Part shown: positions 16,080 to 53,730 of the stretch, piece after piece
How the letters are laid out: every line of letters begins with the position of its first letter
Position numbering within the stretch: the stretch's first letter is position 1
Source: Tubulanus polymorphus
Taxonomy: Eukaryota; Animalia; Nemertea
Direction of reading: 5' to 3'
DNA: 64,000 bases
Assembly: GCF_964204645.1 (NCBI RefSeq)
Contig: NC_134026.1
Coordinates: forward strand, 10,067,950 to 10,131,949
Made by a program: the position numbers and the translations under genes
The notes under the pieces: generated by a model
Told to the model about the DNA's origin: nothing
What the model saw: the letters and a program-made list of their open reading frames with translations, nothing else
Databases searched by the model: none

Positions 16080-16325
16080 GAAAGATAACAAAAAGATGAT
16101 GAAAAGATAGTGAAAAGATGTTGAAAAGATAGTAAAATGATGATAAAAAGATAGTGAAATGATGATAAAAAGATAGTGAAATGATGATGAAAAGATAGTG
16201 AAATGATGATAAAAAGACTAAAGATACACGGTGATAAAAAGATGAAACGATGGAAAGGTGAAACAATGAAAAGGTAAAAAGATGAACAAATGAAAGGACC
16301 CCGAGTGAAATGATGAAATGAAATA
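16080..16325. repeat. Degenerate ~21-bp tandem repeat (AAAAGATAGTGAAATGATGAT)
   Basis: Visible tandem units inside the insertion that splits the BEL gag. Confidence 0.8.
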
Positions 16326-16425
16326 GAATTGTTGATCACACGCTGTAACGTTTTTACAATTTTACAATGTAAAATGCAATGATATTTACACTGTATCGTA
16401 TCTAATCAAGCGATGCAATGCTGTA

Positions 16426-17156
16426 AGACTCGACCGTAAGATTGCAAAAACCGTAAAGTTTCCCAAGTTTCCGTTTTTCTAGCTAACGAATGCGCATTAG
16501 TCAATGCTGGCAAATGATCCAAGTCGAGAAATCGGCAAAGTGCGCATGCGACCCTACATATGAACATGTGAACTTTGATGACTACAAGTCACTGTAGTCT
16601 TTATAAACTTCAAATCCCATAAAAATATTGATCTTGTTCATCTTATGGCGGCGTTATAAGGTTCGAATCCCGAAAATTACTGATTGTATTTCAAGCGTTA
16701 CGATATGAACTTTTATGACGCTGGTTTATAGTTTGCTGAGTAAAAAAGTTATAGCATCCCGAATATGAAATAATAAACTTTAATAGCCCCAGGGTTTACT
16801 TGTATGTGCTAGGTTCGAATCCCGAATGTGTAATAGAAAAATACATTCATTCATTTTAATATACCGATATACATTATATCTTAGATTTTCAGCTTACAGT
16901 AAAGACCATTTGAACACTTGTCATCGCTAAAAATACAAATGATTCTCTTAAGTGACCAAACAAACTGTACTTTCACGTTGAAAAAGTTCAGACAGGTTCA
17001 TTTCAGCGTACTGCTATGACCCAGTTTAGAAAAAAATTCACATGTAGTGATGCATGCACACGCTCACAATTTCTGGACTTAGAGAGGATTTCCCTAACAC
17101 TTATTAATGCGCATGCGTTATAAACAGAGACTTGGGAAACTTTACGGTTGTGTCTC
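16426..17156. mobile_element. MITE nested in BEL gag
   Basis: Inverted ACCGTAAAGTTTCCCAAGT...TGCGCATTA (~16450-16500) versus TAATGCGCA...ACTTGGGAAACTTTACGGT (~17105-17150). Confidence 0.6.
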
Positions 17157-18289
17157 TAACACCAAATTAAATCACTATAGCTGGTACATAATAATCTTCT
17201 TACTGGAATGCCTCCATGCCATCCGGCATATCGATGGTTGTCAAGTGTTACAATACTCAGCTAATATGAAAGCGCTGGTGGACAAGCTTCCGTTCTACCT
17301 ACATGATCGCTTGCATGGTGTCGTCAAAGGGTAGGGGCCGTGAAATTTGATTTCGTTCGTAAGGATGGTCAAAGGCGAACGATCCGGTCTATGGTCGCAC
17401 GGCCTTTCCTAAGAAAGACAACCGGAAGCCGAAAGCGTCATTTGCGATCATCCACGACGAACCCGTGAAATCCAGAGATTCTGAAAGTACCGGCAGTGGC
17501 ATGAATACCTTTCGGAATGGCCTTAACAAGCCCTGCTTGCACTGCGACTCGACGAATCACGCCATGGTCAATTGTGACTCTTTCGGTCATCTGGATTCGG
17601 TCGAACAAACCAAAAAGCTTAGAGCGGAGAATCTATGCTTCGGCTGCTTACGCACCGGTCGCCGTAAGCTGCACTGTAAGAATTTAGCCACCCGCAGTAA
17701 ATGTCACCGGAGACATCCAACAGTACTACACTTTGACAGTCAGTCCGATAGCCCTTCACGCAAGGAAAGTGCTAAGGAGCAGTCGACTGACACGATAAGA
17801 TGGCGTGTAGAACCATGGGGGCTGGTGACCAGTGCACTCTGGCGATCATCCCAGTTAAAGTTGGGTTGAAAGACGGCACGAAATTCGTCAATACGTACAC
17901 TTTCTTGGACCCTGGTAGCACCGTCAACCTGTGTAGCGAATCATTGTTGCAGCAGTTAGGGTATCCAGGCCAACCAAAATCGTTAACACTAAAAACTGTG
18001 AGTACCTCGCATAAGATCCCTACATACCTGATGCGCTATGTGGTGATTAAAAACTTTAGCTCTGACGAGAGTGTAGTTCTGTCGTCTGTGTATAGCAAGG
18101 ATTAATTGAATATTTCGAAGGAACACATCCTGCCACGCAACGACGTTTCTCGGTGGCCTCATCTATCCGACATCGAGTTGGAAGAGGATCAAGGTTTTCG
18201 AAATCGGACTCCTTATCGGCAACAATGCGCCCGACGTCTATTCACCTTAAGATGTATGTACCGGCCCACCGGGATCGCCTCACGACCTC

Positions 18290-20887
18290 CATGCCTCAGA
18301 GGTAAGATATTATATTTCATCAAATTTTGCATGTGCCAACTGGTCAAATCCACTAATGCGCCTGATATAATGAGATAAAATAAAGTAGAGAACACATTGA
18401 CACTGTTGTTTTAGTTTGAAATCATCAATACAGAGAAAAAAATTACTTTGTATCGCAGTGACCATCATGCATATAGTTGCTTAGTGGTTTGGTCACCACA
18501 GTAGCCATCACGCACAAATGGCATGTAATTTTTATGAATTGTTATGACACTTGTGTAAGACCTTACTCCTTCATTTCAGCACTCGTAAACGAACACGTAC
18601 AGTAGACGAAATAGTCGATGAGATCGCCATCGATGAAGATGACGATTATCATCGGGTAGTGATGACGATCGATTTTCAGATGGTGAAGATGACGATAGAG
18701 ATGTTATTGGCGCCGAAGCAGAAGAGGAAGATTCTGAAAGTGATAGTGAGCCTCCTGAAAGTGAAGGGGAAGAAACAGACACAGCCACAGACACAGACAA
18801 CGAAGAGCCAAGGCCAAGTCAAAGCAGGCCTACTACTGCCAAAAAACAGCCAGCCATGAAAAAATCAAAAACGTAAGTTGCGATACTCATTTCCTCTATC
18901 ACGTGATACAACAAATCGATCGAAAATATATACAGTCAATTTATGATTGCTTCTTGTTTGTATTTCAGCAATGCACGCAAGTGGAAATTGGAAAAGAAGG
19001 ACTTACAAAAATTTGTCAATGACGGAGTTGGGTCTAAACTTGCCGCAAAAGGCACAGCGTCACAGGCACAAACTGAAATGGAATACCTCATGGAATTATT
19101 TAGTGATGATATTATAGACAATTTGACCTTCGAATCAAATAGACTAAAACTGCAAACAAACCAGGTTAGACTAAAACGTGTCACTAATGAGGAAATGAGA
19201 AAGTTTCTGGGTATCGTTTTATACATGTCTGTCATCCGTGTACCATACCGGCCTGAGTATTGGTCAAGACAAACACGCATTCCTACCATGGCAAATGCTA
19301 TGTCTGTCAATAGATTTGATGAGATAATGTCATCACTTCATTGCAATGACAATAACCTACTTGTTGCTAGAGGTGAACAGGGCTACGATCGCCTATACAA
19401 GGTACGCCCTCTAATAAAAAAGTTAGGTGAAAATTCTGAAGCATGTGCGGAAAAAGAGTTGCACTCAGCGATCGATGAACAGGTTGTTCCCTTCAAAGGA
19501 AGGAGTACCCTTAAAACGTACAACAAAAAAAACCCCAAGAAATGGGGGTATAAGATCTGGGCATTAGCAGGCGAAAGTGGTTATGTTCACCGGTTTTATT
19601 TTTATGGTGACAATCAAATCCCAGACAACATTGATTTCCCAGACATAGGCAAAAGTGGACAAGTTGTTCTGAATTTATGTGCCGATTTACCATTAGAGAT
19701 ACATTCCTCTATTTTGATAATTATTTTGCCTCACCAGCTCTGCTTCTAGAGTTGAAGAATAAGGGATTATATGGTACTTGTACAATCAGGTCTGACCGTA
19801 TTGCCAACTGCACTCTCACAACAGAAAAAAATCTGGTCGTGGCAGTCTTGATTTCAAATCCTCAGATGGTATAATAATTTGTCGTTGGTATGACAATAGA
19901 TCTGTCAACCTAGGTTCAAACAAGCATTCTGTTGCTCTTCTGAATGTTATAAAGCGCTGGGACAAGAAAACAAAAGACTTGGTCAATGTCCAGAGACCAA
20001 ATATTGTCAGTGCATACGACAAAAAGATAGAGGAGGAGTAGACAGATGTGACATGGTGTTGGCCCTGTATCGTAATACTCTGAAAACAAGAAAGTGGTAT
20101 AAACGTATCATATTTCATTTGCTCGACCTAGCTGTATCCAACGCCTGGGCCCTCTTTCGAGCAGATGGTACAAATAAGATGCCATTTCACAAGTTCAAGA
20201 TAGCTGTTGCAGAGGGTCTTATTGAAAACCAGATGATGGAGACAAATGATGAGAATGGTAATGCCCCTGCGTTACGGGCAGCCGATGTCCCCGATTCGGT
20301 CAGATACAACAACAAAGGTCATTTGCCAATGCAACAGGAGACCAAAAAGGTGTCGTCAAAATGGATGTAAAAGAAGGTCAACATATTTGTGTAAGAAATG
20401 CAATGTGTACCTGTGTATTGATAAGCATAGTAGCTGCTTCTATCATTACCATACTAAGTAATAAATGGAGTATTTGTAAACAAAGGTCGACTTATGTGTA
20501 TAATGAGATGTATTATTGTGACAGAAACAGCCGATATGCTTATCAATGCAGTACTTGGCCTGTTTAAACAAGATCGACTTATGTGTATAATGAGATGTAT
20601 TATTGTGACAGAAACAGCTGATATGCTTGTAAATTCATCACCATATTAAGTAAAGTTCAATAAAAGCAGTTTGAGTGAGTTTTGCAATTATCTTTGTTGA
20701 CATTTTTTATGGATTTTCATTACCTTCTTGCATGATGGCTACTAGAGTAGCATGGCCCGACCCACAATATGGGGGGGGGGGGCAAATTTTGAATTGTGTT
20801 TGGGAGTCTTTATTTGGTGTCATATAGGTAAAGTAAAAGCAGTGGTAAGGAAATCTGAAGGGTTGGAGGGGGCCATGCAACATAGGG
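18290..20887 (+). mobile_element. piggyBac transposon with an intron-containing, frameshifted transposase; left end apparently lost
   Basis: DDE_Tnp_1_7 motifs IDEQVVPFKGR, KKWGYKIW, YFDNYF, GVD..D, KWYKRI and a C-terminal Cys-rich domain. Acidic first coding exon 18580-18872 followed by a GTAAGT intron. Right end AGGG plus TTAA at 20888-20891. Confidence 0.9.
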
Positions 20888-22972
20888 TTAAGTCAGATCT
20901 GTTGTTAGGGGGGTCGATATATGATCGACCTCCCGTTCAGGTCTGAGGGTAGCCGTCTACCAAATAACATTGACCAAGCTCTTAACCGTCTATATTCGCT
21001 GAAGAAACGGTTCATTCGAGATGAGACATACCGTCTAGACGATAAATCGTTTATGGATAACATGATCTCTGCTGGTCATGCCGAATTAGTTGCAGACAAC
21101 ACTTCTTCGCCAGGGCACACCTGGTATCTACCGCACCAAAGTCAACTCGAATAAGATCCGTGTCGTTTTCGATGGCTCTGCCCAGTATTGTGGCTCCTCA
21201 TTGAACGAGGCACTGTTGCTGTACCATCCCTAACCAGTTCGCTGATATCGGTACTGTAACGTTTCCATCAGGAAAAGATCGCATTTATGGCAGACATCGA
21301 GAAAATATTCCTACAGGTCGTCGTTCCGCCGAAAGATCGTGACGCGCTGCGCTTCCTGTGATGGCCGGAGGGTGATATCAGTCGCGACCCTTCCACCTAC
21401 CGAATGATTTGACACTTCTTCGGAGCCATATCATCACCTAGTTGCGCGAATTCAGCATTCCGCAGACGGCTAAAGATAACGAAGCGGATTTCGATCCGTC
21501 AGTAACCGAATTGATTCAGAGAATCTTTTACATGGACGATTTCTTGAAATCCGTTGATGGCATCGAGGAAGCTATATCAATTGTTCAGGAAACGACTTCT
21601 CTCTGTAGTAGGGGCGGTTTCAATTTTTGTGGCAGGGTTAGCAACACTCCCCAGTTGAGGGCTCTCTTAAGCCCCGAGCTGCAAGTAGATTCTGCCCAGG
21701 AGATGGACCTCGATTTCGATAAGACTTGAGAACGAGTTCTGGGTATCTCGTGGTCGCTGAGTTCGGACACATTCGTGTTCAACAGATCAATCCCCGAACG
21801 ACCAGCAACTCGTTACGGCATCCTCTCGGTTGTAAGCTCGATCTATGATCCGTTGCTGGCACCCTTCGTCTTGCCGGCGAAGATGTTGCTACAGAACTTA
21901 TGTTTGCGCAAGGCTGGTTGGGATGAAGAGCTGACTGCAGATGAACTTTCCGAGTGGAAAAAATGGTACAGGTCATCTCCGATCTAAATCAGGTCCGCGT
22001 ACCACGTTGCTACAAGCCAACTGGCTTCGGGAAGGTCATGAATTGCGAAATACACAATACAAAATTCCGACGCTTCGGGGGTCGGTTACGGGTCAGCTAC
22101 GTACGTATACAGATACCGCAGGTGACGTTTTGTGTGCGCTTATGTTCGGCAAGTCATGGGTCACCCCCTTGGAATCGATCTCTATTCCGCGCCTAGGATT
22201 GACGGCTAGCGCCATGGCTGTCCGTCTCTGCAATAGGCTGCTCAAGGAGACCGAACTGAGGGTAGATAAGATTCATTTTTGGACGGACAGTACAATCGTG
22301 TTATGTCACATCAGAAATGAATCATGGTTAGCTCTGCACCACAACCGCGTTCGTATAATGTCTGAATCAGGACAATATTATCGTAGAAATAGGCGTCATT
22401 TGAACAGAACACAGGAGGAACACTTCCTGACAACCATCAAGGACTTGTCTGTTCCAGAGTCAATGACTACGGCTTCGGATGATGTACAACCTGAACTAAC
22501 TACGCGCGCAACACACACGCGCGGCAACAGTAAGTAGGCCTATATACATTACTACTGTTGCTGCGCGCGCGTGTCTGCAACCGATCGATAAAATAAATAC
22601 ACACTCATCGTAGTACAAATGTAGTAGTGCTGCCATCTAGATTGTAGGATAATGGCTGCCACGTAGACTGTAGTAAGAAGAGAAATAAAAAACTAGAAAT
22701 CAAGTTTAATGATGTGTTACTTGTTCGTTATGTTACAGTAAACACGTAAGCAGTAGTGATATTTTTATCTGCTCTACAAGTCGATTGTTGAATTAGGACA
22801 TTGCTCGACTGAACGCAACTGAGGAATTTTTGTAGCTTGTTTGTGTCGTATACACAAGTAAGAGAGCATCATATATAGCTTCGAATTCGGCAACACAAGT
22901 TAGAGAGCATCATACATAGGCTTTAATACTTCGGATTCGGCTAGTAACAAGAATATTGCATATCAATACTCC

Positions 22973-27019: not shown

Positions 27020-27747
27020 ATGGTCACCAGGGGGCGTTGAATATTGAAAAGTCCGGCAAAACCAACCAAGTGGGGACTAATTGCAAAAACCGCTGCTTGT
27101 CCCCACTCTGGATCCTTACTCAGTGCTATCCTCTACTGCGGACGCGATGAGAATTTAGTCGTTGAAGATGGACTTGAACGTCGCAATATGTAATCGAAGT
27201 TTTGAAACCATTTGCAGGGCGGGGACATCACGTTTACTGTGATCGATTATATAGCTCCATTCCTCTTGCTGAAAACCTTTATAAAAAGGGGTTTCATTAC
27301 ACCGGAACAATAATGCTAAATCGAGTTGGCATCCCAGCGGAAATAAAATATCCAACGAGGATGCGTGTCGGTGATGTTGTCGCTTATCGTAGTGAGAATA
27401 CGTTGCAACTAAATTGGAGAGATAAGCGCGTTGTCTCCATGATTTCGTCATATGGAAAGGGAACTGAAATCGAAGAGATTTCTGTTCGACGCGATCCAAC
27501 AAAAAAAGTAAAAAAGCCTAGTGTCATTGTGGATTATAATAATCATATGTCGGGCGTTGACAAACACGATCAGCTCAATAAATATCATGAATCCACACGT
27601 AAGACCGTGAAGTGGTGGAAAAGGATCTTTTTTTGGCTCTTAGAAAGTTGCGTCACGAATTCGTATATTCTTTACAAACTGCACAGAGGATTTCAGATCA
27701 GAATTATATCAGAATTTCAATTTTGTTGTTGTTTTCATCAATTTTAA
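27020..27747 (+). pseudogene. piggyBac (PGBD4-like) transposase fragment
   Basis: KPTKWG, HHVYCDRLYSS, WRDKRVVSMIS, DYNNHMSGVDKHDQ, KWWKRIFFWL. A possible right end AAAGAG-TTAA lies at 28319-28328. Confidence 0.85.
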
Positions 27748-29072: not shown

Positions 29073-31616
29073 TAGCAGATTATTATCACATATAGCCAGA
29101 TGTGGCGAAGGCAGCTAAGGGTACAATAACAGCACATATTGAAAATGAAACTAACGTAATACGCAACCAAAATGAAATGTTGAATGAGCCAGAAAGCACA
29201 GAATCGTTGTGGTCAACAGATACAGCCTCAATGACAAAGGCCATAGTACATGGAAATTGCCATCAAGGTCACCCAAAATTTGGTGTCCCCTCTGGTAAGC
29301 AATGTGTTGCTAACTCCTTAGCTGCTATTATTCATCCAATGAACAAGTCACTGATACACTGAACATCAAATGATGTTCATTCTGTCTTGATTACTGGTAA
29401 TGAATTATATGCAACATTGACAAGTATGAACACTTTATCTTATATCTACCTTTTAGTCAGTGAACTGCTGAATGCAATTGAAATATCTAATTATATGTAC
29501 GAAGTAAATGTTGGAATCTCATATGTTGCAATGCTTGTTTTAAGTGTTGAAATGAAAGCTGGAAAGTTTGGTGTAATTATGGAATTGTCTGAATGTTTAC
29601 ACACAGTACTAGATGAATATAATGCTTGCTTTGTTACATTTGCTGGTAATACATTTTGCGTTTTGAATCAGGATGGTGTGTACTGGGTATTCGACTCTCA
29701 TTCACGTGACTCAAATGGAATGATGACTGCTGATGGATTTGCCACGATAGTAAGTCATAGAAGTATAAATGAATTAGAAAAACATTGTCACAGACTTGCC
29801 GCTTCTATGAATTAAATTGATGAAATAACAGGTGTTAATATAATCTGCTCTGATCAAAAGGATCTTACAGGAGAAACATTATCCACACAGCCTCAATCAA
29901 CCAAAACCGTCTCATTTAAATGAAATCTATGATGATGATGTTATAGCTGTGGGTAGCTCCATACACCACACCTCACTAGTTTACATACCTCTAGAAAACG
30001 TTCAGTGTTTATCATTATGCTCTATTCTAGACATACCAACTCGATCTGTTATAGGTATTCCAATGGCTGAACTTGGATATGACAGTATGCCTGCTTATAC
30101 TGGACCGCTAGGCTCACCATGCAGTACCCATAAGATAAAAGGTGAAGGTAACTGTTTTTTCAGAGCTATCTCTTATTCTATCTGTGGTACTGAAAACTAT
30201 CACAGGGTAATACGTACAAAAGTAGTAAACCACATGAAACACAATGCAGAGAGGTTTCAACCCCATTTGAGAAATGCAGATATTACTGTAGAGCAATATA
30301 TTGAAGCATCCCAGATGAAATACGTACAGATATGGATGGGCGACTTAAGTTGAAATATTGGCCACAGCTGATTTACTGCATATAGATATCTATACGCATA
30401 TAGATGACAAATGGCAACAATTTTCGGATTCAGTTTTAGCCACTGTAAAACATCAATATGAATCCAATGGTAATATTTATCTTAGAAACAGTAGTGGTAT
30501 GCACTATGAGGTTGTTGTGTGCGTAAACTGTTCTGATGTATATGATAAAGTATGCGCATGGTGCGGGAACGAGTATAATTCAATGAATTATGCCACCGAT
30601 AACAAACGTGAAGATCAAATCAGGAACAGGAAATCAGTCAAAAGGCGTTATGATAATCAGCGCTATCGGCAGGATAAAATGTATCGCAACAAGATGATAA
30701 CGTATGCATCTCTAAAATATGAGAACGATGAATCTTATCGCCAAAACCAAAACACAGGGAAAAAAATGAAGTACAGTAGCAGTTTGGAATTCCGCCAGCA
30801 GATGAAATTTAATACTGTTAAGAAATACCACAATGATCGTAACTATTGTAATACTCTGAAAAGGAAAGCCGCTATGAACTATAAACAGAGAATGATGAAT
30901 TTCGAAACCAGGAGAAAGCGTTCAGTATACAGAAATATAAAAGTGACTCTCAGCATCGAGACCATGGACGTATAAACTAGAAGGAAGGCGCACCATTCAT
31001 CAAGATCAAAGGCCCCGCTGATAACAGCTGTTTGCACTGTATTTGCAAGTGCCCGTTGAACAGGTGCGCGTTGTTACTAGCAACCGCCTAGCGTCTCGGT
31101 ATAAAGGAAGCGGTGTATGGGGATGCGCAAGCGCAATAGAAGCTATTAATGTGCGTAATAGATGTGCGCAGTCGTCGCAAAAAGAAAGATGGCTTCGTGC
31201 TCGGCGTTTGAGTGAAAATTTTTCGAGAATACGTCAATTTTTTGCGAAACTACAGCAGATTAACTTATGGAAGCATATGATGACATTTTTTAAATATAAG
31301 GTGAATATAATGTCTAATTTCTCATAGTCACACTCTTTTCCTCTGTTTGTGAATTATACATTTAAATGAAGAAAGAGTCCATCGTATCGATCCAAATGGT
31401 TTACACGCCAAATTGTAGAAATTTCAATCAGAAAATTGATCAGTTTTGGTTATTCTACCGTCCATGTTATGGATTTTTGAAGAGAAATGATCACCTTTTC
31501 TCAACATAATCAGTAGCCTTCTTTATTATTTCAATGTTTTCCTATCTTAAACTGTCATAATTTACCTCTAAATTGTTTCTATTTTTCCAGACTTCAGACT
31601 ATATAAAAAACGAGCA

Positions 31617-34600
31617 ATGGATACGGAATGTTTAGCGCAAAGCTCAATAAAAATTGGTAGGTGACCTGTAAATCATCAAATCCATGGTATGAAAGTTATT
31701 ACCACTTATCAGGCATTTCAGAATTTTGATTTCATTTATTTTAGAGAAACATCGACAGAATCTGAGCTCCATTTGTCGACTGTGCAGGCAACACTTCGAA
31801 TGTGGCGGAGGGATTGATGTGAATGATAAGCGTTATGCGACAATCATTCAGGAATTCTTAAATATTACCGCTGCGGAAGATGGAAATGTTTTTCCGAGTT
31901 GTTTTGCAGCAAGATTTGTCGTAGGAAATTGGATCGTGCAAAAAAGCCAAGAAAAACAGAAGTACTGCAGTTTCGTGAACATGGTTCGGACTGCACAATT
32001 TGCGACTCGATGCATGAGGAGGTATCGGTGGAAGAACTAAAAGCCATTGCGGAGAGGAATAACTTTCACCATCAACGTAATGATGATGGATCACTATTTT
32101 TTCAGTTGTCAGCTAGTTTTCAGCGGTTGGAAATCAGTGTATTTTTGATGAATGATATGACTTGAACTATTAAAATCAGGGAAAGCGATTGTACGAATAG
32201 TGAGCTGTTTTCTGCACAACCGAAAATTATGACAACTTTTTCATTCGCGGAATTTTTGTGTGCGTTAAGATCATTTTATATTTGCTCTGGAAATGCTGAT
32301 TTTAAAGAACTATGCGAACAACAGAAAGTAGGAGAAGCTGGTATTTTCTTATCTCGCGAGAACAAAGTGACTACATTTGAAGAAATAAATTTCGATACAG
32401 AATCAACGGTGCGGCATATTTCGTGTTCGATGCTATTGAAGGAAAAACCTGGCAGATGTATTTACTGTGAACTGTATAGACCAAACTTGTTTTTGATGAA
32501 TTCGCAATTATCAAACAAACCTGCTGCTCCTGGATTACACCGTCGAAATGATAATTTGCCAAAGGCTACTTTGATTTCAAAATGTAAAAATATTCAAAAA
32601 GAGAAAGCGTCTCTCAAAAGAAAATTGAAAAACCTTGAGGAACAGGTGAAAAACAGAATGGAAAAAGATGGTATTTGTGTGAACAGTGAATTATCAGAGA
32701 GTTTGACCACCGTACTGAAATTGAACAAGGAATCTATATCAAGCTTACATGAAGAATCTCCTCAGCAAATCCTGTGGGAGCAACAAGCGGGCAATGAACT
32801 GGCACCCTGTACTCATTAAATGGTGTATTTCCCTGGCATACAACTCGTCATCTGCCTATGAACTATTGCAATCATCGCCATTTCTGAACTTGCCGCATAG
32901 AACTACATTGAGGGATTATACTCATCTTTGGAATAGTGTCTCTGGTGTCAATTTTTACCTCATCAACCAAATAAAGAATGAATTGAATTTTCATAATATG
33001 AAAGACTACTAAAAATGTGTGTCACTCGCCTGCGATGAAGTTAAGATCAAAGATGGTCTTGTTTACAGCCCAGAAACTGGCGAATTATTAGGATTTTGCG
33101 ACTTGGGCAACTTAAACAATGAACTTGCCACATTTTCGAATAGCTGCAAAGAAGAGGTAATTAATGTGAAGCCATTGCAACACACGTCATGGTATTTATG
33201 ATTCGTGTTTTATTTACTGAAATCCATAGCGTAATCGCCCATTATCCATGCGTCGGTTTTGACAGTAACCAGATATTTTGGGCGATACAAAGAGTGCTGC
33301 AAGCCGTTGAACTGTCTGGTTTTCTCGTAAAATCTTACCTTTGCGATGGTGCATTACCAAACAGACATTTTTTCAAACTACACCACGACATTGAACTTCA
33401 TGGCGATGGACCAGCATTTTGTACTCCCAACCCGTATCGTTCTGGATCAATGATATATGATATATCTGATCCATCGCACCTGATGAAAACGACGAGGAAC
33501 AATTGGGATGTCACAATTCTGGATGGCACAATAAAACAAGGAATTTAACGGTTAGTATTATATACAATTGAATTATTAATTGAATTATTAATCAAAATAT
33601 ATATTAATGTATTTTCATATTTATTATAGTTCAATGGTCAAGGAATTAAATGGCAGCAGCTCGTGTCCGTCGTAGAATGTGATGCAGGCATAGATGCTTT
33701 CGGCAAGGGAAATGCAGGAGGTCTTCGAATGCTGAGCAAAATTACGATGGACCATTTGCGATTCACACCTTCATTACGAATGAAAGTAAAACACGCTGTT
33801 CAGGTAAGAATGAACTGATTTTTCTTCAGTGATTTGAACAAGTAATCATTCAAATGTTTAAAAAGGTTTTCAATTTCTTTAAAGGTTCTGAGCCAGTCAG
33901 TTGCAGATGCATATGAAATATTTGACAGATTCAAGGATAGCACCAAATCGACGCGTAAATTTGTTTCGTATATGGACACTTTCTTTGATTGTTTAAATGC
34001 ATTCAAGACTGGATCAGCGGAAAAAATCCAAAAAAATAACAACAGTACCCTATCATAGAACGGATGACTGGCGTTTATCAATGAATAAGGTTTTAAAGCT
34101 CTGATATTCATCTAAGTTCTGAAATAGGAAAGAACTTTTTATCATTTCCAGTGGCTCGAAGAAGATTTCTTGCAATTCCTAGAGAACTGGCAAAGCCAAA
34201 GTCTGGCTCGTGATGATTTGACAAAAACAGAGAAGAGTCGCCTGTGCTTAAGTCAGCAAACACTAGAAGGATTTCAAATTACTGGTAATGACATATTTAT
34301 TTGAGACATACTTAAACAAAATTTACATTTACAACATATCATAAATATCTAAATTTTAGTTAAGTCGTTTGTACGCCTGACTCGAGAATTGGTGCTTGAA
34401 CCAGAAGTGCAGTTCTTTTTGAGTGGAAAGTTAAGCCAAGAGCCCCTGGAGATTTATTTCAGCAGACAGAGAGTTTGTGGAGGCAAACATGAAAACCCGA
34501 ACGTGCTCGATTTTCGGCAGAAAAATACTTGTCGCTGGGTCGAAAGCAATTCATGGATCGCCATATGGCAACTGCCAAGTCGACGATTACTCAGTAACGG

Positions 34601-34640
34601 ACGAAATCGATCTTCAACGAAGAAATCGAAGAAATGATCA
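31617..34640 (+). pseudogene. P-element/THAP9-like transposase, multi-exon, with an N-terminal RAG1-CND-like Cys/His domain; several stops and frameshifts
   Basis: WHPVLIKWC...AYELL...LPHRTTLRDYT, CDEVKIKDGLVY...LLGFCDLG, CDGALPNRHFF, SDPSHLMKTTRNNW, LSQEPLEIYFSRQR..GG..ENP. Introns at ~31657-31744, 33551-33629, 33804-33884 and 34285-34358. Confidence 0.85.
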
Positions 34641-36667
34641 CTAAGTATGTTTAATAATCTGATTTCTGCCGTTTTAACCTATGTTCTGGGAAGCACTTAA
34701 ACTTTTTCGAAGGCTTTTCTCCTTTGTTGCACCTGTTTTTGGGTTCAATTTCTGTTTCACAAACACGTATGAATTGACAAATCCTTTCATTCGAATTCAT
34801 ATCCAGCACCGAATAACTTGTTTTAGCATATATGTTTTCAATTCATCATTAACTAGGGGTGCTGATATGGAATTCCACGAGAACAGTATTGCCCGGTCAC
34901 TTAGTACAGTATCTTCAAGGATTTTTTTAACATTTCCTTTAACAGATTTACTGCATTTGATGTGGCAAGCAGTGGTTTTATTTTCAGTTGTAACAATTTG
35001 AAAAATTGATAAACACTGTCATTTACACAGAATAGTCCACCACGATTACAAATATCAATCAGTTGTTTAGTATAGTCGAGAAATGATGATGCACTTGAAA
35101 TATCTTCAGTTCTCCAAGAGGCAAAAAATGTTGCATAATTTGCCGCCATAACAGAATTCTCCTTTTTTGTTGATTTATAGCCTATGTAACGTTTTTTTAA
35201 GTTGAGATGCAACATATCCAGCTACATAACGAATAACTTGTTCTTCGTTTTTTTCTAGCTCAAACTTTGGTAGCTCTGGAGAAATAACAGCAGTTTCATT
35301 TTTTGTTTTCATTATGCGTTCCAACACTCCTAAGACATTAATAACAAATAGGCATTGATAACAAATGTTTTCTTTTCTAATTTTAGTTGATGACTATCAA
35401 AAAATATGCAGAACTCGGTCATGAAGTTGACATTGTGAATAAGCTTCAAATATGCTGTGCAGCTCTTGTAGTAGTCATTTTCACCCGGTATTCGCTTCTT
35501 CTCGACAAACAGACTTTTAACCAAATTATATATATAAGGAACAATTACTTTCAGCAAATTTTTTTGTCGTAGAGTTCTCATAATCACTTTGGAACAATGT
35601 ATATAATAGTTTCACATCAGCGCTGTATTCTATGTCGAGCTCACACATACCATCAAGTTTCATTGACAGAAGACCATCTCTTAGCATTTTTAAGGAGTCC
35701 ATGGTTGCACTGTCTTGATATGCTGATTCCGGTGCTGTAATTTAAATAATACATGTATATTAATCTTTCAAATTTTGTTAATAATGTATAGATAATAGAA
35801 TATAAGGAAGAATTAATCTTAATTCTTATATATTAATTCTTGTATATCTATCTTTCAAATTTTGTTAATAGTTTATACATAATAGAATATAAGGAAGAAT
35901 TGATCTTTAAAATACCTGTTTTCTTAACTTGAATGTTTTCCGGGCTTTTATTCGAGTGGATTGCATCGACGACCTCACTGAGCGCGGCTAAGTTGTTAAA
36001 ACCTGAAAAAATTGTATTCCGTTAGTGATCAAAGAAAAAATGAATGACAGTCAAAAATATTGAAATACAATAGATACCTCTGGAACATTGACTGCTGCAA
36101 TAACATTCACCACCGGGACCAAATGCACTGTCTTCAAAGCAAGCTACCAGAAAAGCTGACCCACATTTTTGACATATGACTAATTCGCTGTTCTTGCCAC
36201 AGTTGCACTTGAATGAGGTTCCCGCAGTGCACCTCAGGCATGCGAGTATTACAGATGGCGCGCACAACAGCGGGTCGTGTTGTACATTGTTATTGTATGT
36301 AAACGCTGTAGACCTATAGTACTGGTACAAACGATTTCTTTTAATAAATAATGAGTGAGCAAAATAGTAGATATGCGAATCTGACACTAGCCGAGATAAA
36401 AAAAGAACTACGAAAAAGGAATATCAAAGTGTCTGGCCGAAAAAATGACTTAGTTGAGAGGTAAATGGATTTTTATTGGGCATGTTTACATTTTCAATTT
36501 ACTTCCGGGTTTATGCACCGGTATTCTGTTCCTAATATAATGTTTATTGAAATGAGTAATTTATCTTAAATGAGGTGTTATTCAGATGTTATTTTCTAAT
36601 ATGAGAACGTTATTGAATATATTTATATTAGATATCGCAAAAATAGGTCTGTTGTTTATTTTTTCAG

Positions 36668-38434
36668 ACTACTTTTCCATGACAGAACTGCGTCTAATGA
36701 TGAGCCTGATGTGGAATACCACATGACAATACCAGATTTACCTTCTTTCAAGGATTTACATTCTGGAGACAAAAATTATATAAACCTTGATAAGAGTACA
36801 GTTATTGACTACTTTAGATGCTACAAAAAGGAATATGACCTTAAGTTTGAAGATCTGTATAATGAAAGGTAATTTAATAATATTCATAGAATTAAAAATT
36901 AAATGTTTACATGCTTATGGGCCTGTCTAAGATAAACACGTAGTTAAACTTATTTTGAAATATCATTTCAGGTACATAAGATATGCTCGAATTGCTTTCG
37001 AACAAACGGATGACACAGATGATGACAACAATTTCATTTATATAACATCAAATGTTTGGGCAGAAATGCGGAAATCTGTCTCTTACAAGGTCGACCTGCT
37101 ACTAACTAAGGAGGGAGGCATAGAAGAGACACAGTGTGAATGTGCTGTTGGCCAAGGACCGACAGCACATTGCAAGCATGTTGGATGTGTACTATATGGA
37201 TTGACATGCTTTTCTGAAAATTCAGAAATCTTAACTGAATTGACATGTACTCAGGTATGTATTTCTTCCTTTTTTGATTGGAGTTAATATTTTTTGAAGG
37301 GTATTTGACAATTTTATATTTTTGCCACAACTGATGGAAATTTCATTCTTTTCAGGTGCTTCAAACCTTCCACAAGGCTAAGCCTCTCAAGGGATCCCCA
37401 GTGAAGGCTTGCAATCTGGCAGCCATACGCGGGAAAGAAAATCCCCCAGTGGTTTTTGATCCAAGACCAACCAAATGGCGTAATGTTGGAACGACCGAAC
37501 AGAATCTCAGGAATTCAGTAATCAATTATCAAGCCCTCCACCCCAGCCATCGATTACCAGTCCTAAATTTATTTCCACCAGCCAATTTACGTGCTTGTGA
37601 CCATGACTACATGAAGCAAACCATGGAAGAAGATTTTCTACAAAAAATCAAAGTAAGTACAATTTGATTAAAAATTAATAGCACCTATGGCGTGTAGTTA
37701 TCTTTAATAGAATAAAACATGTTTTACATAAGAAATGTAATTCTTAATTTTAGGTCTCATCTATAACTGCTGACGATATCATAGACATTCAGTCAAAAAC
37801 AAAATTACAATCTTCTAGCAAATTGTGGAAAGAACAAAGACAATACAGAATAACATCATCTACATTTGGAACTATATGCAAGGCAACTGAAAGAAGGGAC
37901 ATCGAAAAATTACTTAACTCATTATTTGGCGATACAGAATTTACTTCATTAGCAACGAATCATGGCAAGAAATATGAAAATGTAGCTGTTAGAAAATTTG
38001 AAGCAGAAACCGGGAAAACTTCAGATTCATGCGGTATTTTTGTTTCAATCGAACGCCCCATGTTAGCCGCTTCTCCTGATCGTATTCTCAATTCAAATGC
38101 TGTGATTGAAGTTAAATGCCCATTTAGCGCAAGACAATTAAAAATCACTCCAAAATCTGTACCTTATTTATACATTAAAAACACTGGAGAACTAAGCCTA
38201 AAGGAAACTCATGATTACTATTATCAAATACAAGGCCAGTTGTATTGTACAGAAAGAAAATTATGTAAATTTGTAGTTTATACACTGAAAGATATGAAAA
38301 TTATTGATGTGAATTATGACCAAGAATTTATAAACAGCATGCTTCTTAAATTAGATGATTTTTATGTAAAGTTCTTTAAACCAGCATTGATTGAAAGATT
38401 CTTTTACCATTGTGAATCGAAATACAATTTCTAA
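36668..38434 (+). CDS. SWIM zinc finger plus YqaJ/lambda-exonuclease-like protein of ISL2EU (spliced; 5' end uncertain)
   Basis: CECAVGQGPTAHCKH (SWIM); W..QRQYRITSSTFG, GKKYE, LAASPD, IEVKCP, YYYQIQGQL (YqaJ). Exons are approximately 36668-36868, 36972-37254, 37356-37651 and 37753-38434. Confidence 0.85.
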
Positions 38435-38491
38435 AAAGTATAAATACATGTACATGAAAATTATGTCTTATTTTCTGGCTCTTAAACTTTT

Positions 38492-40146
38492 TCAGGCATC
38501 TCTCGGAACTATAGCCGACTTAAAGTTACATAAGAAAAAGCATACACTTATAATGGGATCTGCTAGTTCGGAGTCTGTATTGTTCATAGGCTGCTTTAGG
38601 ATTTTGAATGTCTTTGCCAGTCCTATCACTCTTTCGACTTGTACTCTTTTACTCGCAATTTTTCTGTCTTGTAGTACTGATGAGGCTGACATTCTATTTT
38701 TTTTCTTAAAAAATTCTGGGATATTGATGGCGACATTTACTGGAACGAATAAATCTTGCATGTTAAACCCTTTGTCAGCCATTATCGAATCTCCAGGGTC
38801 ACAGATTTGTAGGAGATTGCTACGCTCACAAATCTGTCGGTCACTCGCTGATCCACCATAAATGTCTGACACAAAACTGACCATCCCACCCGGAGTTACG
38901 CCTATCAGAGCCTTAACTGTATTTCGGTTTTTATATGTTGAGTATGTTGCTTGCTGGCCAACCGGTTGTTTCGGCTTCATTATTGGACACTCGGTGCCAT
39001 CGATAACAACTCTGGTGGTAGGATACTTGCGCCTGAAATCTACTGGCGAGTAGAATTTTACAATGTCTCGTGATGGCCACCAATTTATCTCCTTGAAATG
39101 CAAGTGTAAGAAATTTATCCATGTCACAAATATGTTCTTTACTTCTTTCTCAGAGCATCCAAACATAAGAGAAAGTTCATAATGTGGCCGAGCCAACCTT
39201 AACTTTGTAAGTGTTAGAAAGAACTGGTCCTCAATCGCTAATGGAGGTTTATTTTGATAATAATATCTCAGTTCATTCACAACTTGGCCAAATGATCCCA
39301 ATAAAAATCGAAAGAATTCATAACTGTTCATTCCTGTATAATAATGGAATGCCTCATCATTAAACATATAGTCCGAAGCCTTCATTCCCGGTTTTTTTTC
39401 AGTTTGCGTCATTACTTCCACAGTTGATACTTCTTCTGTTTGAATGAAAACTGAGCTTGTTTTTGAAGTCTCACCTGAAAAATTCAATTTAAAGTTCTAT
39501 GAAATCCAATTTCTATTCCAACTTCAAGATTAATGTAATTTGAATCAAAATGAATTATCCATAAATTATAATACTGTTTGCAGGTAAGTATAAATCAAAA
39601 TTTATTAAACCCACCTTCTTCAAAAGTTTCGACCTCTATTTCTATAGGCTCACATTCAGTCTGCCAAGATATAAGGGCTTCCATCTCGCGCTTTTCTTCT
39701 AATTTCTGTCTTTTATATGCTCTTTCCTTTCTCTCTGACAGAGACACATTTGGTGTTTTTTCCAAGAGAAAATGTGTGGGACCGCACCTGGTTTTAAGAC
39801 TTGATGTACAACATCATTCCCTGAAAAATAAAATACAAATGATGAATTCATCACAGACAATATAGCCTAAATAAATATTAATTTACGAATTTATTTACAA
39901 TAATTTACAAAAAATACACCATTTGAAACTGACTACAGAATTAAAACACCATAGTTGCATATCCTACCTTCTTTAGTGCTCCGAATATAATCATGTACGT
40001 CAAAATGTAATTTACATACTTTAGCCCACTTGCCAGGTTGCCATTTTCACTGCTAATATCCACTTTTGTCGTAATTCTAAATCTTTTGATGGAAATTGGT
40101 GACCTCCTTTACCGTTGCACAAAGGCACCGAACAATATATTGGCAT
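38492..40146 (-). CDS. THAP-HTH-DDE_Tnp_4 transposase of ISL2EU (spliced; THAP exon appears frameshifted)
   Basis: MPIYCSVPLC...HQFP...KW...VCKLHF (THAP); DQFFLTLTKLR (HTH); VIDGTE, YSTYKNRNTVK, GGSASD, IMADKGF, IASKRVQVERVIG (DDE). Confidence 0.88.
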
Positions 40147-40811
40147 TTTGACAGAATTTGAACTATTATCATGAGAAATTTCTATAGAATTCTATATTGA
40201 TGTGTTCAAGGAACCTCAGTTTACACATGAACCGTATCGTGGCGGCATCTAGTGGCAATTATGTGATACATTTCTTGGAATTTCTAGGATCTATATTGAA
40301 TTCTACTAGATCTAGTATATACTGCATCTATAGTTAAGCGACCCGCTGTTATGCGCGCCATCTATCGTGATAGCTGGATTGACGGGAACCTCATTGGCAC
40401 TCTATATTCGTTTTGGTTGTAATCTCGAGATTGAACGTATCTTGGCCAATAAATTGAGTGAAGTCCTGTTCAGAATAATTGCACAAAGTGTCTTCCAAGT
40501 CATCTAAAATTTGATCTAAACCAACCGCCATCATCGAATGTCTAAAACTGACAGCGTAACCAAGGATATACGTCAACGAACTGACATCGGATTTCAGCGG
40601 AATTAACCGATTATGCCCGAAGCTATTCCGGAAATAACCGGACATTACCGATCACAGCCGCAGCTACACGCATCCGCGCGCAGGTAGATGGGATTACGTT
40701 ATAGACAGAGATGTGTGAAGTGTTTACTCTGCGCTGACAAGTAGCGTCAGAAATACAGTTGATTCCTTTGAACCAGGCTGGTGCGCCCTCCTTCTAGTTT
40801 AAACGTCCATG

Positions 40812-41052
40812 TCCACATTACGTGGAGTCATTTTGATTTTATAGTCATCGATATAGAAATCGATTTAGTTCAATGTATCGTGGCTTTGTTTGATTCTATT
40901 TGACTGTAATAGCTGAAAAAAACGTCTTAAACTGCAACAATTTATCAAAAGGACATCAAGACTCAAGCCTCGTCTTTGTGCCCTTTTTTGGGACAGTGCC
41001 CTTCAGAAGATTGGTGAACCCAGCCCTTTCAGAAATCCTGTATCCGCCCCTG
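40812..41052. mobile_element. One end of a hAT-type MITE
   Basis: Ends in GAAATCCTGTATCCGCCCCTG (reverse complement CAGGGGCGGATACAGG) with subterminal TGCCCTT repeats. Confidence 0.55.
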
Positions 41053-43619
41053 CAGGATGATGAATTTTGAAACCAGGAGAAAGCGTTCAGTATACAGAAA
41101 TATAAAAGTGACTCTCAGCATCGAGACCAAGTCAGGATATACAGTATTGCAAAATATCAGAATGACACTTAGCATCGAGACCAAGTTAAGACGTACAGTA
41201 TTGAGAAATATTGAAAGGACATTCAGCATCAAGAAAGGGTCAAATGCTACAGCATTGACAAATACAAAACTAATTTGGACCATCAACATATTGTGAAGGC
41301 CCGCAGTATAGATAGGTATGCACACGACCCGATATTCAAAAATACTATCAAAGGCCAAAATAATTTGAGGCGGGAAAATGAAAAGGTGAAGAAATTGGAC
41401 GTCAATTATGTCATATCAATATTTCGGGACACAGCAAAGAGAGACCCTGAATATGTATGTGCTGTTTGTCAACGTCTACTTTTTCAAAATCAAGTGAAAA
41501 GATTGGATGTTAGCATGTATAGTACTCGCAGTTCCAAACACTCAGCTGTTGCGCGAGAATTTATAACAAATACCTATCTACATACATGTAGCAATACTTG
41601 CTCTCAGTCATGTACCTTGAAAGGGAAAATCATGGATATGTCATTGTTGCCACAGTAAATTACTGTCAGCTATAGTACCTTGTAAAGCTGCTGTTAATAA
41701 CTTGCAATTAGAAAGTATTCCCGATACGCTTACACAACTGAATTCGCTAGAAGTTCATCTCGTTTCAATTAACATACCATTCATTAAAATGATAGCTTTA
41801 CCGAAGCAAGGTCAGCACGGATCTCATGGGCCAGTCGTATGTGTACCGAGCAATGTAAAAAAAAAACAACGACATATTACAGCGAAATTATTCGGATGAT
41901 CAAATGATGAAGGTCAAATTGAAACGAAAACTTACATTCAAAGGACATAACAAGTATTAATTCGTTGAGCAGAAAAAGATAATGGATGCGTTGTGTACAT
42001 TGAAATCAATTAATCCACATTATCGTGATGTGAAATTAAACTATGAGTGGAATAACCCATTTGAAGAAGTCACTGAAGATCTGAGAGAGAATCACTTGAG
42101 GATGAGATATTAGATACAGAAACAATTGAAACTGAAGAACTGCCCGATCTTGACAACAATTCCACAGCACAAGGACAAAACGATGTCAACTGCCAGGAAG
42201 AAACTGATGTCAAAATCTGCATGGAATGTACATGAATTCCTGCCTGCAACCAATTAATATCGGCCAGGAAATTCTTGACGCACATTTCAATGACATTTTG
42301 TGTGTGGCTCCTGCTGAAGATGATAGCCCAATAAAGATTTTGACTGATACTGAGAATGAGGCCAGGTGTATCCCCACTCTCTTTCCGACCGGTAGATTTA
42401 CATATCATGATATTCGAGGACACAGGATTACTTTATCACGCTACTTACACACACGTTTAATGAATGCCGACCCCAGATTCTCGCGAAACAGATTACATAT
42501 TTTATGCACAGTTTTTGTCTGAAATCAACCAGGTCAACTCAAATGTCTCAATTGCATTGCGGAAAGGAGTGAAAGATGGTAAGAAAAGTTTGAATATTGA
42601 CTTGAATACTTTGAAAAACATTGAAAATATGAACGAATTGTTGAAACATAATGACGGTTATAAGTTTTTAAAACCTATCAGAGGAACCTATCTGGGAAGC
42701 TGCTCAAAAAGACTTGCTGGCTTAGACAATTAGGTGTGCCAACATTCTTTGTGTCATTCTCTGCAGCTGAAATGAGATGGGAGGACCATTTAGAGGCTAT
42801 AATGCGAGTTGATGGTTGTGATAAGCCAGTAAGAGACATGTCATGGTCCGAGAAATGTGGTATATTGAGACGAAACCCAGTAATTGCAGCCAGGATGTTT
42901 GATCATAGATTTCGTACGTTCCTTAACACTGTTATCAAGTCCCCTGCACAACCTATTGGTGAAATAAGGGACTACTTTTATCGGGTGGAATTCCAGATGC
43001 AGAGCAGCCCACATGTACATGCTTTGATATGGGTAAAAGATGATGACGTTGATGGCACTGAGTTTGTAGATAGATACATAACCTGCAGATTGCCTGAAGA
43101 ATCCGAAGATCCTGAATTGCATGAGGTTGTCACCAGTGTCCAAATGCATAGTAAAAGACATTCTAAAACATGTCGTAAAAAAGGTACTGTATGCAGGTTC
43201 AATTTCCCCAGAAATCCATCCCTACAAACATTTCTAACTCAGATGAAATATGAAGCCCCTCCAACAAGCGATGAACCAGATGAAGAAATTCAGCAAATAC
43301 AACATGATGCAGCTATGAATGCAATGACCCCAGCTAGAGCTAAAGAGATACTTGGAACTGTGTGGAAAATGATGAATACAGAGGGAACTGAGTTAACAAC
43401 AACAGAATCATTATTCAGATCAATTGGTATCACACAGGATATGTTTGAAGAAGCCTTTTGTAGTTTATTGCGTAAAAGTGGTGTCGTGTTGAAAAGAGAA
43501 CCAAATGAATGTTGGGTAAATCAATACAATCCTGCATTATTGAGAGCCTGGCAAGCAAACATGGACATCAAATGTGTGACTGATGCATTCGCATGCGTAG
43601 TATATATTGAAAATACATC

Positions 43620-44830
43620 AAAGCGAAGGGACATCGCGCCAGAGAAGATGACGAAACTGGTATTCTGAATATCTCAATTGGACAATCACCTAAGGTATGA
43701 AACAGTTTTTATTATTTTGTTCCTTCATAGTTTGTCAAATTGTATTTCTTAATCGTGATCTAAAAAAGGGCAAACTATTTGAAATTGATTGTCCCATTGC
43801 CAAGACATTGCTTTCAAAACTTTCTCCCTGCTCTTTCAGGTTTTCATTGGGTCTCCTTTTCCCATCAATGATGATATTATGTTGGCTTTAACAAACCCTC
43901 CATCCATTTCTATTTTGGAGACTCTGTCCAGTCCAAAAAAGAGAAGAGTCACCATCAAGGGCAAAGTCGAAAAAGTGAGTACTACATAAATATTCTCATC
44001 TATTTATCACTTTTCCTTCATGCTCAAGGGCCTGTCGCTCTGTAGTAGGTTTACGTTTTAACTGTAGAAAAATGGCATTTACTGACATATAAGTGACTAT
44101 AAGTGACATTTTTAATCCACCAGATTATCAACTATCAATTTTTCAACCATTGTCTTTAGAGGCCCTGCTATATTTGGCGTTTTAGCACAATCCCCTGCAG
44201 TAATATATCATATTTGATAGGCATTTTTCTCATCTCCAGGTGTTCCAAAGTTCTGGAAAAAGAACAGATGTGTTTGTGTCCGACGGCACAAATGATATTG
44301 TGGCCAAATTCTGGGAAGGGTCTACCATCACCAAAGGCTAATACCAGTCTACAAAACCAGGCCCAGAACTTATCGAAACAAATAACTCTAATAATTACCT
44401 CGCATGAAGTGCTTGCAGTGGACACCAGCTCCCTGCAGTTATTATATATTCCCACTATTATGGTATCATCTTTAACCTAGGGGCTTGAAAATGAATTCAG
44501 TCAGCCTCCCTGGACCCTGGTAAAAGATAATTCCTGTCTATAAATCTAGCTCCTGTAATGTTTTCATTGCACCCCTTTCACCACCAACTATGTACCTACA
44601 AGCATTTCTATTTGTTACTTCAAGGTAGAACAGTCTAACTACAGAAACGGCGTTTTGACTGACATAGATGACGAGGAAAAGCAGTTAATCGTGGATGACA
44701 ACATTATTGAATTCACACCTGGTATTTTAGAATTAGTCATGGAATCACAATACCACCTTCCAGTTAATGTGGACATAACATTGGAAGGAAATGTTATAAC
44801 AGAGATATGCAAATCATCGTAAGTACATGG
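43620..44830 (+). pseudogene. Spliced fragments of a possible OB-fold/RPA-like accessory gene
   Basis: Short exon-like blocks with GT-AG ends, e.g. 43841-43974 VFIGSPF...LSSPKKRRVTIKGKVEK followed by GTGAGT. The fold call is tentative. Confidence 0.35.
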
Positions 44831-52463: not shown

Positions 52464-52647
52464 AATAAATGTGCCATCTACATCAGAACTACCAGTGTTG
52501 TAAATGGTCATGCTCAGTACGTTTAGGTTACTCATGCTTACATACTCCTTTTATCGTTTACAGTCCCTTCCCTAAGGTAGTGAGTCTGTCATTCCTTTGC
52601 ATTATCTAATGGTTTGATTTTTCTTGTATCAGAATTCCTTTGCTGTG

Positions 52648-53730
52648 ATGGCTAGTGAAGCGTCTAAACGTCCTAATACGCGAGGTCTGAAGAGGACACC
52701 GGCAGTGTCCCGAAGTAGAAGTCACGATGCTGCAATGCGTGACGGCGAACTTTCTCTACCCGGCGATAGCCTTGGGGTCGGCAGTACCGACCGTGGTCGG
52801 AGCAATAATAGTCCCCTGTCCGTGCATTTTGATACCGGGGATAATACGAATATCCCGGTATCATTCCCTTTGCAGTCCCCCTTGCATTCTTTCCCTTCTA
52901 ATAGCGACGGTGGAGATAATGCCTCTACGTCGTTTAGTCGGCAGGATCGTGATTCTTTCTCTCTTGGTCGGCCTCAGTTCCGTGCGGTAGAGCCCGAGTC
53001 ATATTCTGGTGAAGGTGTATGGGAGGACTACCTCCAGGTTTTCATTACCGCATCCGAGGTGAATCAATGGAACGATTCTATGAAGGCGGCTATGCTTTTC
53101 ACTCATCTTAAGGGCGCGGCTCGTCAGTTGGCTTGTTCCTTACCTTTCTCCGACCAGAGGGATTTTTCGCGTCTTGTACAGGCTTTGCATAACAGATTCG
53201 GAGCTAGCAATCAATCGGAGCTCTATCTGGCTGAAATACGTAATCGTAAACGTCGTAGGAACGAGTCCCTTCGTGAGCTCGGCCAGGCACTTATAACCCT
53301 TTCTAACCGTGCATATCCAGGTATGGATATGTTGCAACATGACCGACTTTTGCGGACACACTTTCTTGATGCATTGGATGATAGTGATCTTAGAATGAAG
53401 CTCTTCATGAGCAAATGTCAGTCCTTAGATGAGCTCATTATTCTTGCAGTGGAGCTTGAGGGATATGCTAAGTTGGAGCAAGAACGATTAACTGGGGGAA
53501 GGATATTTGTTAAGAACGTAACCGGCAGAGAAAATGAGTCTACGGAGTTAGACCAGCTACGGGGGCAAGTAGCTGATTTGACCAAGGCTGTATCCAAGCT
53601 TTCCATACCCAATGCTGGACCTCGTGATCTTTCTACCGTTCGTTGTTTTAATTGCGATCGGATGGGCCATTTCAGACGTAATTGTCCTGATAGGTCGGGA
53701 AACTTCCGTCAGCGGGTCAAGCGGGAGTAA
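52648..53730 (+). CDS. gag: Gag (capsid plus CCHC knuckle)
   Basis: WEDYLQVF...NQW...LKGAA capsid motif and CFNCDRMGHFRRNC zinc knuckle. Confidence 0.92.
   Translation: MASEASKRPNTRGLKRTPAVSRSRSHDAAMRDGELSLPGDSLGVGSTDRGRSNNSPLSVHFDTGDNTNIPVSFPLQSPLHSFPSNSDGGDNASTSFSRQDRDSFSLGRPQFRAVEPESYSGEGVWEDYLQVFITASEVNQWNDSMKAAMLFTHLKGAARQLACSLPFSDQRDFSRLVQALHNRFGASNQSELYLAEIRNRKRRRNESLRELGQALITLSNRAYPGMDMLQHDRLLRTHFLDALDDSDLRMKLFMSKCQSLDELIILAVELEGYAKLEQERLTGGRIFVKNVTGRENESTELDQLRGQVADLTKAVSKLSIPNAGPRDLSTVRCFNCDRMGHFRRNCPDRSGNFRQRVKRE

Follow-up and report, generated by a model that had tools for sequence, protein, structure and literature searches.

A decayed two-gene P-superfamily transposon in the nemertean Tubulanus polymorphus, with a probable transposase C-terminal domain in a separate convergent gene

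The sequence analysed here is a 64,000-nt stretch of the Tubulanus polymorphus (Nemertea) genome (GCF_964204645.1, NC_134026.1, positions 10,067,950-10,131,949, forward strand), referred to as the window; all coordinates are window positions. It contains a decayed transposon of the P superfamily, bounded by terminal inverted repeats (TIRs), with two genes that face each other. Gene 1 encodes a P-type transposase that ends without the usual C-terminal domain (CTD), and gene 2 encodes a protein whose main domain is predicted to be a CTD of the same type. The ends and genes of the element are as follows.

30963-30995, plus strand: left TIR, 33 bp, beginning CATGGAC; the ends of other copies coincide with it.
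31617-34644, plus strand: gene 1, P-type transposase without a CTD, with several frameshifts and at least two stops.
31657-31744, 33551-33629, 33804-33884 and 34285-34359, plus strand: GT-AG introns of gene 1 that are skipped in contigs of sequencing run X2.
Near 34070-34151, plus strand: a further gene 1 intron, predicted only.
31750-32003, plus strand: two-zinc motif set resembling the N-terminal zinc domain (NZD) of RAG1 and the Chapa domain (H31750, C31774, C31783, C31905, C31917, H31980, C31992, C32001).
32030-32816, plus strand: middle domain with Cys motifs, then a coiled coil; lineage-wide, with matches in 120 of 120 gene 1 relatives.
32788-34550, plus strand: helix-turn-helix (HTH), RNase H and GTP-binding insertion (PF12017, PF21787, PF21788, PF21789).
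34674-40534, minus strand: gene 2, with an acidic start, a Cys-rich finger, a helical domain and a predicted P-type CTD; stops and frameshifts.
40534-40362 plus 36256-36078 (one exon split by a nested ISL2EU transposon), 36002-35916 and 35734-34674, minus strand: exons of gene 2, predicted from GT-AG borders and phase.
34674-35240, minus strand: predicted detached CTD of gene 2, with YVAGYV at 35228, RGGL at 35044, a third helix near 34811 and a basic tail.
36082-36255, minus strand: Cys-rich finger of gene 2 at the position of the homologues' PHD; the His is absent.
40779-40811, minus strand: right TIR, 33 bp; one further copy terminates here and has a different flank.

The two TIRs agree at 31 of 33 positions and enclose 9.85 kb, and a 21-base pattern derived from them matches the window twice (0.01 matches expected). 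In contigs from four sequencing runs of a single study, other copies stop exactly at 30963, with several differing flanks, and one stops at 40811. The contigs also contain internally deleted derivatives, with joints 31821-32809 and 33568-34092. They read as the window does, which rules out assembly error as the source of the lesions. The library type of one run, X2, is not on record, but its contig joints skip four GT-AG introns of gene 1, so these contigs appear to derive from RNA. The first-pass annotation of the window had described two spliced, convergent genes between the TIRs. The TIRs, both genes and the splicing stand (the introns of gene 2 being predicted only), but the TIRs enclose four genes, since the ISL2EU transposon at 36257-40359, which that annotation had not described, brings two of its own. 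The 3' ends of genes 1 and 2 do adjoin, as that annotation had claimed: their stops, at 34642-34644 and 34676-34674, are separated by 29 bp.

Gene 1 has the features of the P superfamily, with the RNase H signature D, D, (C/D)xxH, E (D33034, D33345, DxxH at 33468 and E34449) and a GTP-binding insertion, and the TIRs of the element are of the usual length of about 30 bp. Members of this superfamily move by GTP-dependent cut and paste and leave 17-nt 3' extensions. The P-element/THAP9-type core noticed at first is confirmed by matches to the P-type HTH, RNase H N, GTP-binding and RNase H C models, and a profile of gene 1 relatives finds the Drosophila P transposase in the PDB (6p5a_A, E 7.7e-9). 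The core scores only as P type, and not as the Transib/RAG1 type found in ProtoRAG/RAGL elements. The gene 1 pieces gave no match to a THAP domain, in line with the first description, although the THAP piece of the nested ISL2EU was detected. Single-sequence word searches with gene 1 and searches of phage and viral collections returned no match, and pieces of the window found nothing relevant among PDB sequences.

The stop of gene 1 lies 68 codons past the glutamine of its QEPLE motif, counted across one frameshift, and about 65 past the catalytic glutamate. Canonical P/THAP9 transposases carry the CTD on the same polypeptide, but no equivalent is present downstream of the catalytic end of gene 1. 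In the Drosophila P transposase this domain comprises residues 567-751 (preprint 10.64898/2026.08.31.747927).

Gene 2 appears to encode the absent domain. The three CTD motifs of P transposases, as defined in the same preprint, all occur in order on the minus strand within gene 2. A gene 2 piece matches the Pfam family Tnp_P_element_C (PF12596) weakly, with E 0.011, and a hidden Markov model of the gene 2 family aligns to 35714-34686 as three collinear segments. Among 1.84 billion representative sequences searched, 54 homologues were found, 67-535 amino acids long; these lengths alone prove little, since many homologues are single-exon fragments. Weak PF12596 matches were found in five of the 54 and a C2H2 finger in one; none of the 54 matched a P RNase H or GTP-binding model. 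Of 20 homologues whose records were consulted, eight are echinoderm or amphioxus gene models in RefSeq; each is named 'uncharacterized', and in these models gene 2 begins with a start and an N-terminus of its own. An 87-bp tandem duplication at 35747-35907 makes up most of the predicted second intron of this copy.

The structural model of one homologue, P0005 (32 sequences, pLDDT 88), predicts an all-helical family core that includes a helical domain of about 150 amino acids. Compared with 48,161 chains, it is most similar to the CTD of the Drosophila P transposase (6p5a_B; Z 11.5, root-mean-square deviation 2.7, 115 of 118 residues), and the next match reaches Z 8.5. The ESM Atlas gave no usable match for P0036. 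None of 120 gene 1 relatives matched the gene 2 model, but those open reading frames end before the catalytic Glu, so this result is uninformative. Because the motifs, the Pfam match and the fold all point the same way, the main domain of gene 2 is very probably homologous to the P-transposase CTD, and the model presents gene 2 as a detached piece of a P transposase, made up of the putative CTD and the helical domain of about 150 residues. The first-pass annotation did not describe this domain. It had taken gene 2 for an acquired PHD partner in a ProtoRAG-like arrangement, a view that gives way to a main domain resembling the P CTD missing from gene 1.

The two-gene layout recurs in relatives. 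Metagenome contigs were scanned with 12 gene 2 homologues, giving 24 loci, which cluster into 18 groups at an 80% identity cutoff. By tblastn, 18 of these loci have a P-type core immediately downstream of gene 2 and in the reverse orientation, and in two more the tail motifs of the transposase face gene 2, so that the layout is seen in 20 of the 24, representing 14 sequence groups; the other four have just 8-276 bp left downstream, too short to tell. In nine related loci an unbroken frame runs from QDP(L/I)E to the stop for 70-77 residues, and in one for 93; it ends in a basic tail and includes no CTD. Two of the loci, L009 and L014, contain complete elements. Each is about 5 kb long, has TIRs and CATAGA termini and is flanked by a target-site duplication (TSD) of 7 bp, and both show the convergent two-gene layout with neither a PHD nor a RAG1-like head. 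The TSD is 8 bp in Drosophila and zebrafish P elements, and some members of the superfamily have 7 bp. The recurrent layout together with the 7-bp duplications of L009 and L014 indicates a two-gene, split P lineage. Gene 2 is under purifying selection: in the closest pair its nonsynonymous and synonymous divergences (dN and dS) are 0.123 and 0.667, and those of gene 1 in the same pair are 0.077 and 0.788. The gene 2 dS is saturated or near saturation in nine of ten pairs, leaving this one usable. No clear subterminal binding site shared between the elements was detected in the comparison. Two further loci are damaged: L001 (1819-2205) is an internally deleted element that retains gene 2 and both tips of gene 1, and L007 (11172-11283) has undergone deletion and rearrangement next to an inverted repeat of 112 bp.

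The same loci bear on the idea of a one-gene P element, either with its last exon inverted by accident in this copy or with two RNAs trans-spliced into one protein. The heavy decay of this copy and the rearrangement at its flank are what an accident might leave, but the orientation recurs in the 20 loci and also in a diverged copy from the same family as the element studied here, where both 3' ends stay together. In addition, the RefSeq models provide gene 2 with a separate start and N-terminus, and a basic tail and stop are conserved at the end of gene 1. Chance inversion is contradicted by the recurrence, and a one-gene origin in either form is extremely unlikely.

The N-terminal head of gene 1 has eight potential zinc ligands. 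The mouse NZD is described as holding two zincs through H102, C110, C113, C175, C178, H206, C210 and C213 (preprint 10.64898/2026.01.24.700457), and the gene 1 head reads H, C (+8), C (+3), C, C (+4), H, C (+4), C (+3), with a frameshift near 31905. Motifs 1 and 3 given in PMC1131882 match the head with single substitutions, and motif 2 matches in part. Other copies carry G at 31786, which provides the final Gly of motif 1, and this motif occurs only once in the six frames of the window. In 200,000 shuffles the ligand patterns of the two head halves, which were taken from the literature and applied after the fact, arise at 0.7% and 0.014%. The outer His and the His-x3-CxxC are features that distinguish the NZD from the one-zinc ZAD. 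The earlier suggestion of a RAG1-like N-terminus therefore survives in part: the eight ligands are present at the place described, across one frameshift, but the likeness is at the level of motifs and one spacing differs. Judged from these motifs, the head is probably a true NZD. This would contradict the confinement of the domain to RAG1 and Chapaev, and would bear on the origin of the RAG1 N-terminus; according to PMC4411706, no other known transposable elements contain the Chapa domain, and the preprint on the NZD (10.64898/2026.01.24.700457) regards Chapaev as the sole lineage to have kept it. Of the 120 gene 1 relatives, none of which has the head motifs, 18 begin with a basic GRP(R/K/P) stretch instead.

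The Cys-rich finger of gene 2 had been read at first as a PHD finger, and this did not hold for the present copy. It has Leu at the His position of the C4-H-C3 ligand set, it gave no match in a Pfam scan, and 247 of 2,000 shuffles score as high as the finger on a profile of five PHDs from the family. Folded alone, it reaches pLDDT 50 and its structure matches are meaningless. Since it sits where homologues bear a PHD (3 of the 54 have a Pfam PHD), it is possibly a degenerate one. In the amphioxus homologue P0041 a C2H2 finger (residues 69-92) takes the position of the others' PHD, so the N-terminal reader module appears to be exchangeable.

A ProtoRAG-like origin, in which a P core acquired a RAG1 N-terminus and a separate PHD partner analogous to RAG2, would account for the convergent layout, the zinc-ligand pattern of the RAG1 NZD and the PHD of those three homologues. 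It conflicts with the predicted gene 2 fold, which is all-helical and CTD-like rather than kelch, with the complete relatives that retain the layout while lacking both PHD and NZD, and with the failure of the finger in the PHD test, and it is largely refuted as to the origin of gene 2. We consider it very unlikely overall. Homology of gene 2 to RAG2 itself is ruled out by the all-helical core and by the absence of kelch matches among the 54 homologues, where the RAG2-like partner of RAGL elements has a six-bladed kelch propeller; the first-pass annotation was right that the partner is not RAG2. The zinc head and the PHD appear, from their distribution in the sequences, to be optional add-ons in the lineage. 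The RAG-like appearance would then come from two such add-ons on a split P scaffold, with the PHD of this copy unproven.

The element is likely a decayed member of a two-gene P lineage, in which a catalytic subunit without a CTD works with a separate CTD-like subunit in trans. Gene 1 would perform the cutting and pasting. The gene 2 protein, with its predicted CTD fold, would dock on the transpososome in trans and contact DNA, and as an accessory subunit it would tune or target integration. Gene 1 of this branch likely acquired, at the usual THAP site, a two-zinc head of the RAG1-NZD/Chapa type, probably for contacts with DNA ends or proteins, and some relatives of gene 2 have gained a PHD, probably for reading chromatin.

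Several observations weigh against this two-subunit reading. According to preprint 10.64898/2026.08.31.747927, deletion of the CTD leaves the Drosophila transposase active and the CTD is inhibitory in human THAP9, so gene 2 does not necessarily encode an essential subunit. The present copy is dead and decayed, and no target duplication of 7 or 8 bp is present at the ends of this rearranged insertion. The fold match comes from the homologue P0005 rather than from this copy, its Z of 11.5 is under the value of about 13 below which the tool advises caution with helical domains, and 6p5a_B ranked 25th in Foldseek (E 0.7, probability 0.93, TM 0.56). The sequence profile of the gene 2 family matched no P structure in the PDB search. 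Splicing of gene 2 is not visible in the contigs, which lack cover over its introns and are therefore uninformative on this point, and one X2 contig is spliced from the gene 1 stop into the antisense of gene 2. As to the head, one Cys pair is spaced +4 where RAG1 has +3, at the frameshift. Neither half of it has a sequence or structure match in Pfam or the PDB, and its motifs occur in none of the 120 gene 1 relatives, a set that leans toward the query loci.

The dispensable CTD of Drosophila and the inhibitory CTD of human THAP9 (same preprint) also suit another role, in which gene 2 is a CTD-derived protein that acts apart from the transpososome, as a repressor on element DNA or as a chromatin anti-silencing factor. 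Gene 2 bears the extra helical domain of about 150 residues, in some relatives also a PHD or C2H2 finger, and the convergent, overlapping transcript hints at mutual regulation. Yet gene 2 has lost neither any part of the predicted CTD fold nor the basic tail helix, both of which pack against the enzyme and DNA in Drosophila, and it is linked to gene 1 at every locus with room to test. This separate role seems rather unlikely. The X2 contig in question has a GT-AG intron, 34645-35386, that starts right past the gene 1 stop and joins the antisense of gene 2's last exon, and such a convergent overlapping transcript allows antisense cross-regulation.

A broader extension of the two-subunit reading is possible but tentative. 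Here the detached CTD would serve as a chromatin-reading targeting partner of a P transposase with a RAG1-type two-zinc head, the RAG1/RAG2 design would have been reached independently, and the RAG1 N-terminal zinc domain would have moved between transposon superfamilies. The two-gene form could also be ancestral to the fused P/THAP9 enzyme.

The remaining features between the TIRs, and the flank beyond them, are these.

36257-40359, no strand assigned: nested ISL2EU transposon, 4.1 kb, with 21-bp TIRs (20 of 21 identical) starting with GG and an AT duplication.
About 36679-38434, plus strand: YqaJ gene of ISL2EU (YqaJ, E 6e-19).
About 40134-38492, minus strand: THAP/HTH/DDE_Tnp_4 gene of ISL2EU (DDE_Tnp_4, E 2e-39; HTH_Tnp_4, E 1e-12; THAP start, E 0.003).
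40812-41127, no strand assigned: rearranged right flank, in which 241 bp of unrelated sequence precede a second copy of about 74 bp of the left flank (30889-30962).

The nested element is an ISL2EU transposon, with the AT duplication, the GG termini, the THAP/HTH/DDE gene and the YqaJ gene that PMC4482050 gives as hallmarks of this group. These it shares with ISL2EU of the PHIS superfamily; its target differs, being G-AT-C where A-AT-T is usual. It is inserted in exon 1 of gene 2 and splits that gene, and its removal in silico restores the frame of the exon and leaves an element of 5,744 bp. The contigs contain no joint that bypasses ISL2EU, which is uninformative. Introns of the ISL2EU transposase (region 39472-39611, 39820-39966) are skipped in X2 contigs, and its THAP exon is frameshifted.

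The host of the insertion is a decayed Helitron with Pfam matches to an OTU protease, DUF6570 and Helitron_like_N, at 29363-30962 and 41054-43668, with a 54-bp tandem unit at 41088-41249. The site was rearranged, as shown by the 241 unrelated bases and the repeated 74 or so bases of the left flank on its right side. The unrelated stretch (40812-41052) separates the right TIR from the duplicated host sequence, and its part 41008-41052 behaves like the terminus of a different repeat, with loose ends there in three runs.

Elsewhere in the window, long gag-like and pol-like open frames at 52618-57465 belong to a long terminal repeat retrotransposon that looks Gypsy-like by eye. Judged in the same way, there are three piggyBac-like transposase fragments (18907-20370, 27178-27747 and 62552-63975), BEL/Pao-like retrotransposon debris at 15283-22537, and a 577-aa minus-strand frame at 1371-3104 that resembles a host phosphotyrosine-interaction-domain gene.

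Published accounts present P/THAP9 transposases as one-chain enzymes, and what their CTD does is debated. A natural lineage with a separate CTD gene would make that role testable by adding or omitting one protein, and a split enzyme could yield a switchable or retargetable transposase. The split P lineage would also account for the 'uncharacterized' protein family of echinoderms and amphioxus. No two-gene P element was found in the full-text literature searched; Repbase and the original N-RAG-TP description lay beyond that scope, so novelty is provisional. On that footing the element is a new variant within the P superfamily, of more interest for its split enzyme than for its resemblance to RAG.

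The closest known systems are the Drosophila P element (PDB 6P5A/6PE2) and vertebrate THAP9, which share with this element the HTH, the split RNase H with its GTP-binding insertion, and D-D-DxxH-E. TIRs of about 31-34 bp starting with CAT, internally deleted copies and a helical CTD with three motifs are further likenesses, the last of them predicted here. The differences are that the putative CTD lies in a separate convergent gene, that THAP is lacking, that an extra middle domain is present, and that two relatives have a TSD of 7 bp instead of 8. The RAG1 NZD and Chapa show His and CxxC, a second Cys pair, and His-x3-CxxC in the same order as the gene 1 head, but here they precede a P-type core, not one of Transib/RAG1 or Chapaev, one Cys pair is at +4, and no RING is seen. 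The N-RAG-TP element of Aplysia (Panchin and Moroz 2008), known here by description at second hand through PMC8355894, is a non-RAG transposon with a RAG1 N-terminal-like sequence, and is there described as wholly RAG1 N-terminal-like. ProtoRAG/RAGL elements (RAG1L and RAG2L) are alike in having two convergent genes within TIRs and an NZD-like head on the catalytic gene. They differ in both proteins, since the catalytic core here is that of a P transposase and the partner is predicted to be helical and CTD-like, not a kelch propeller.

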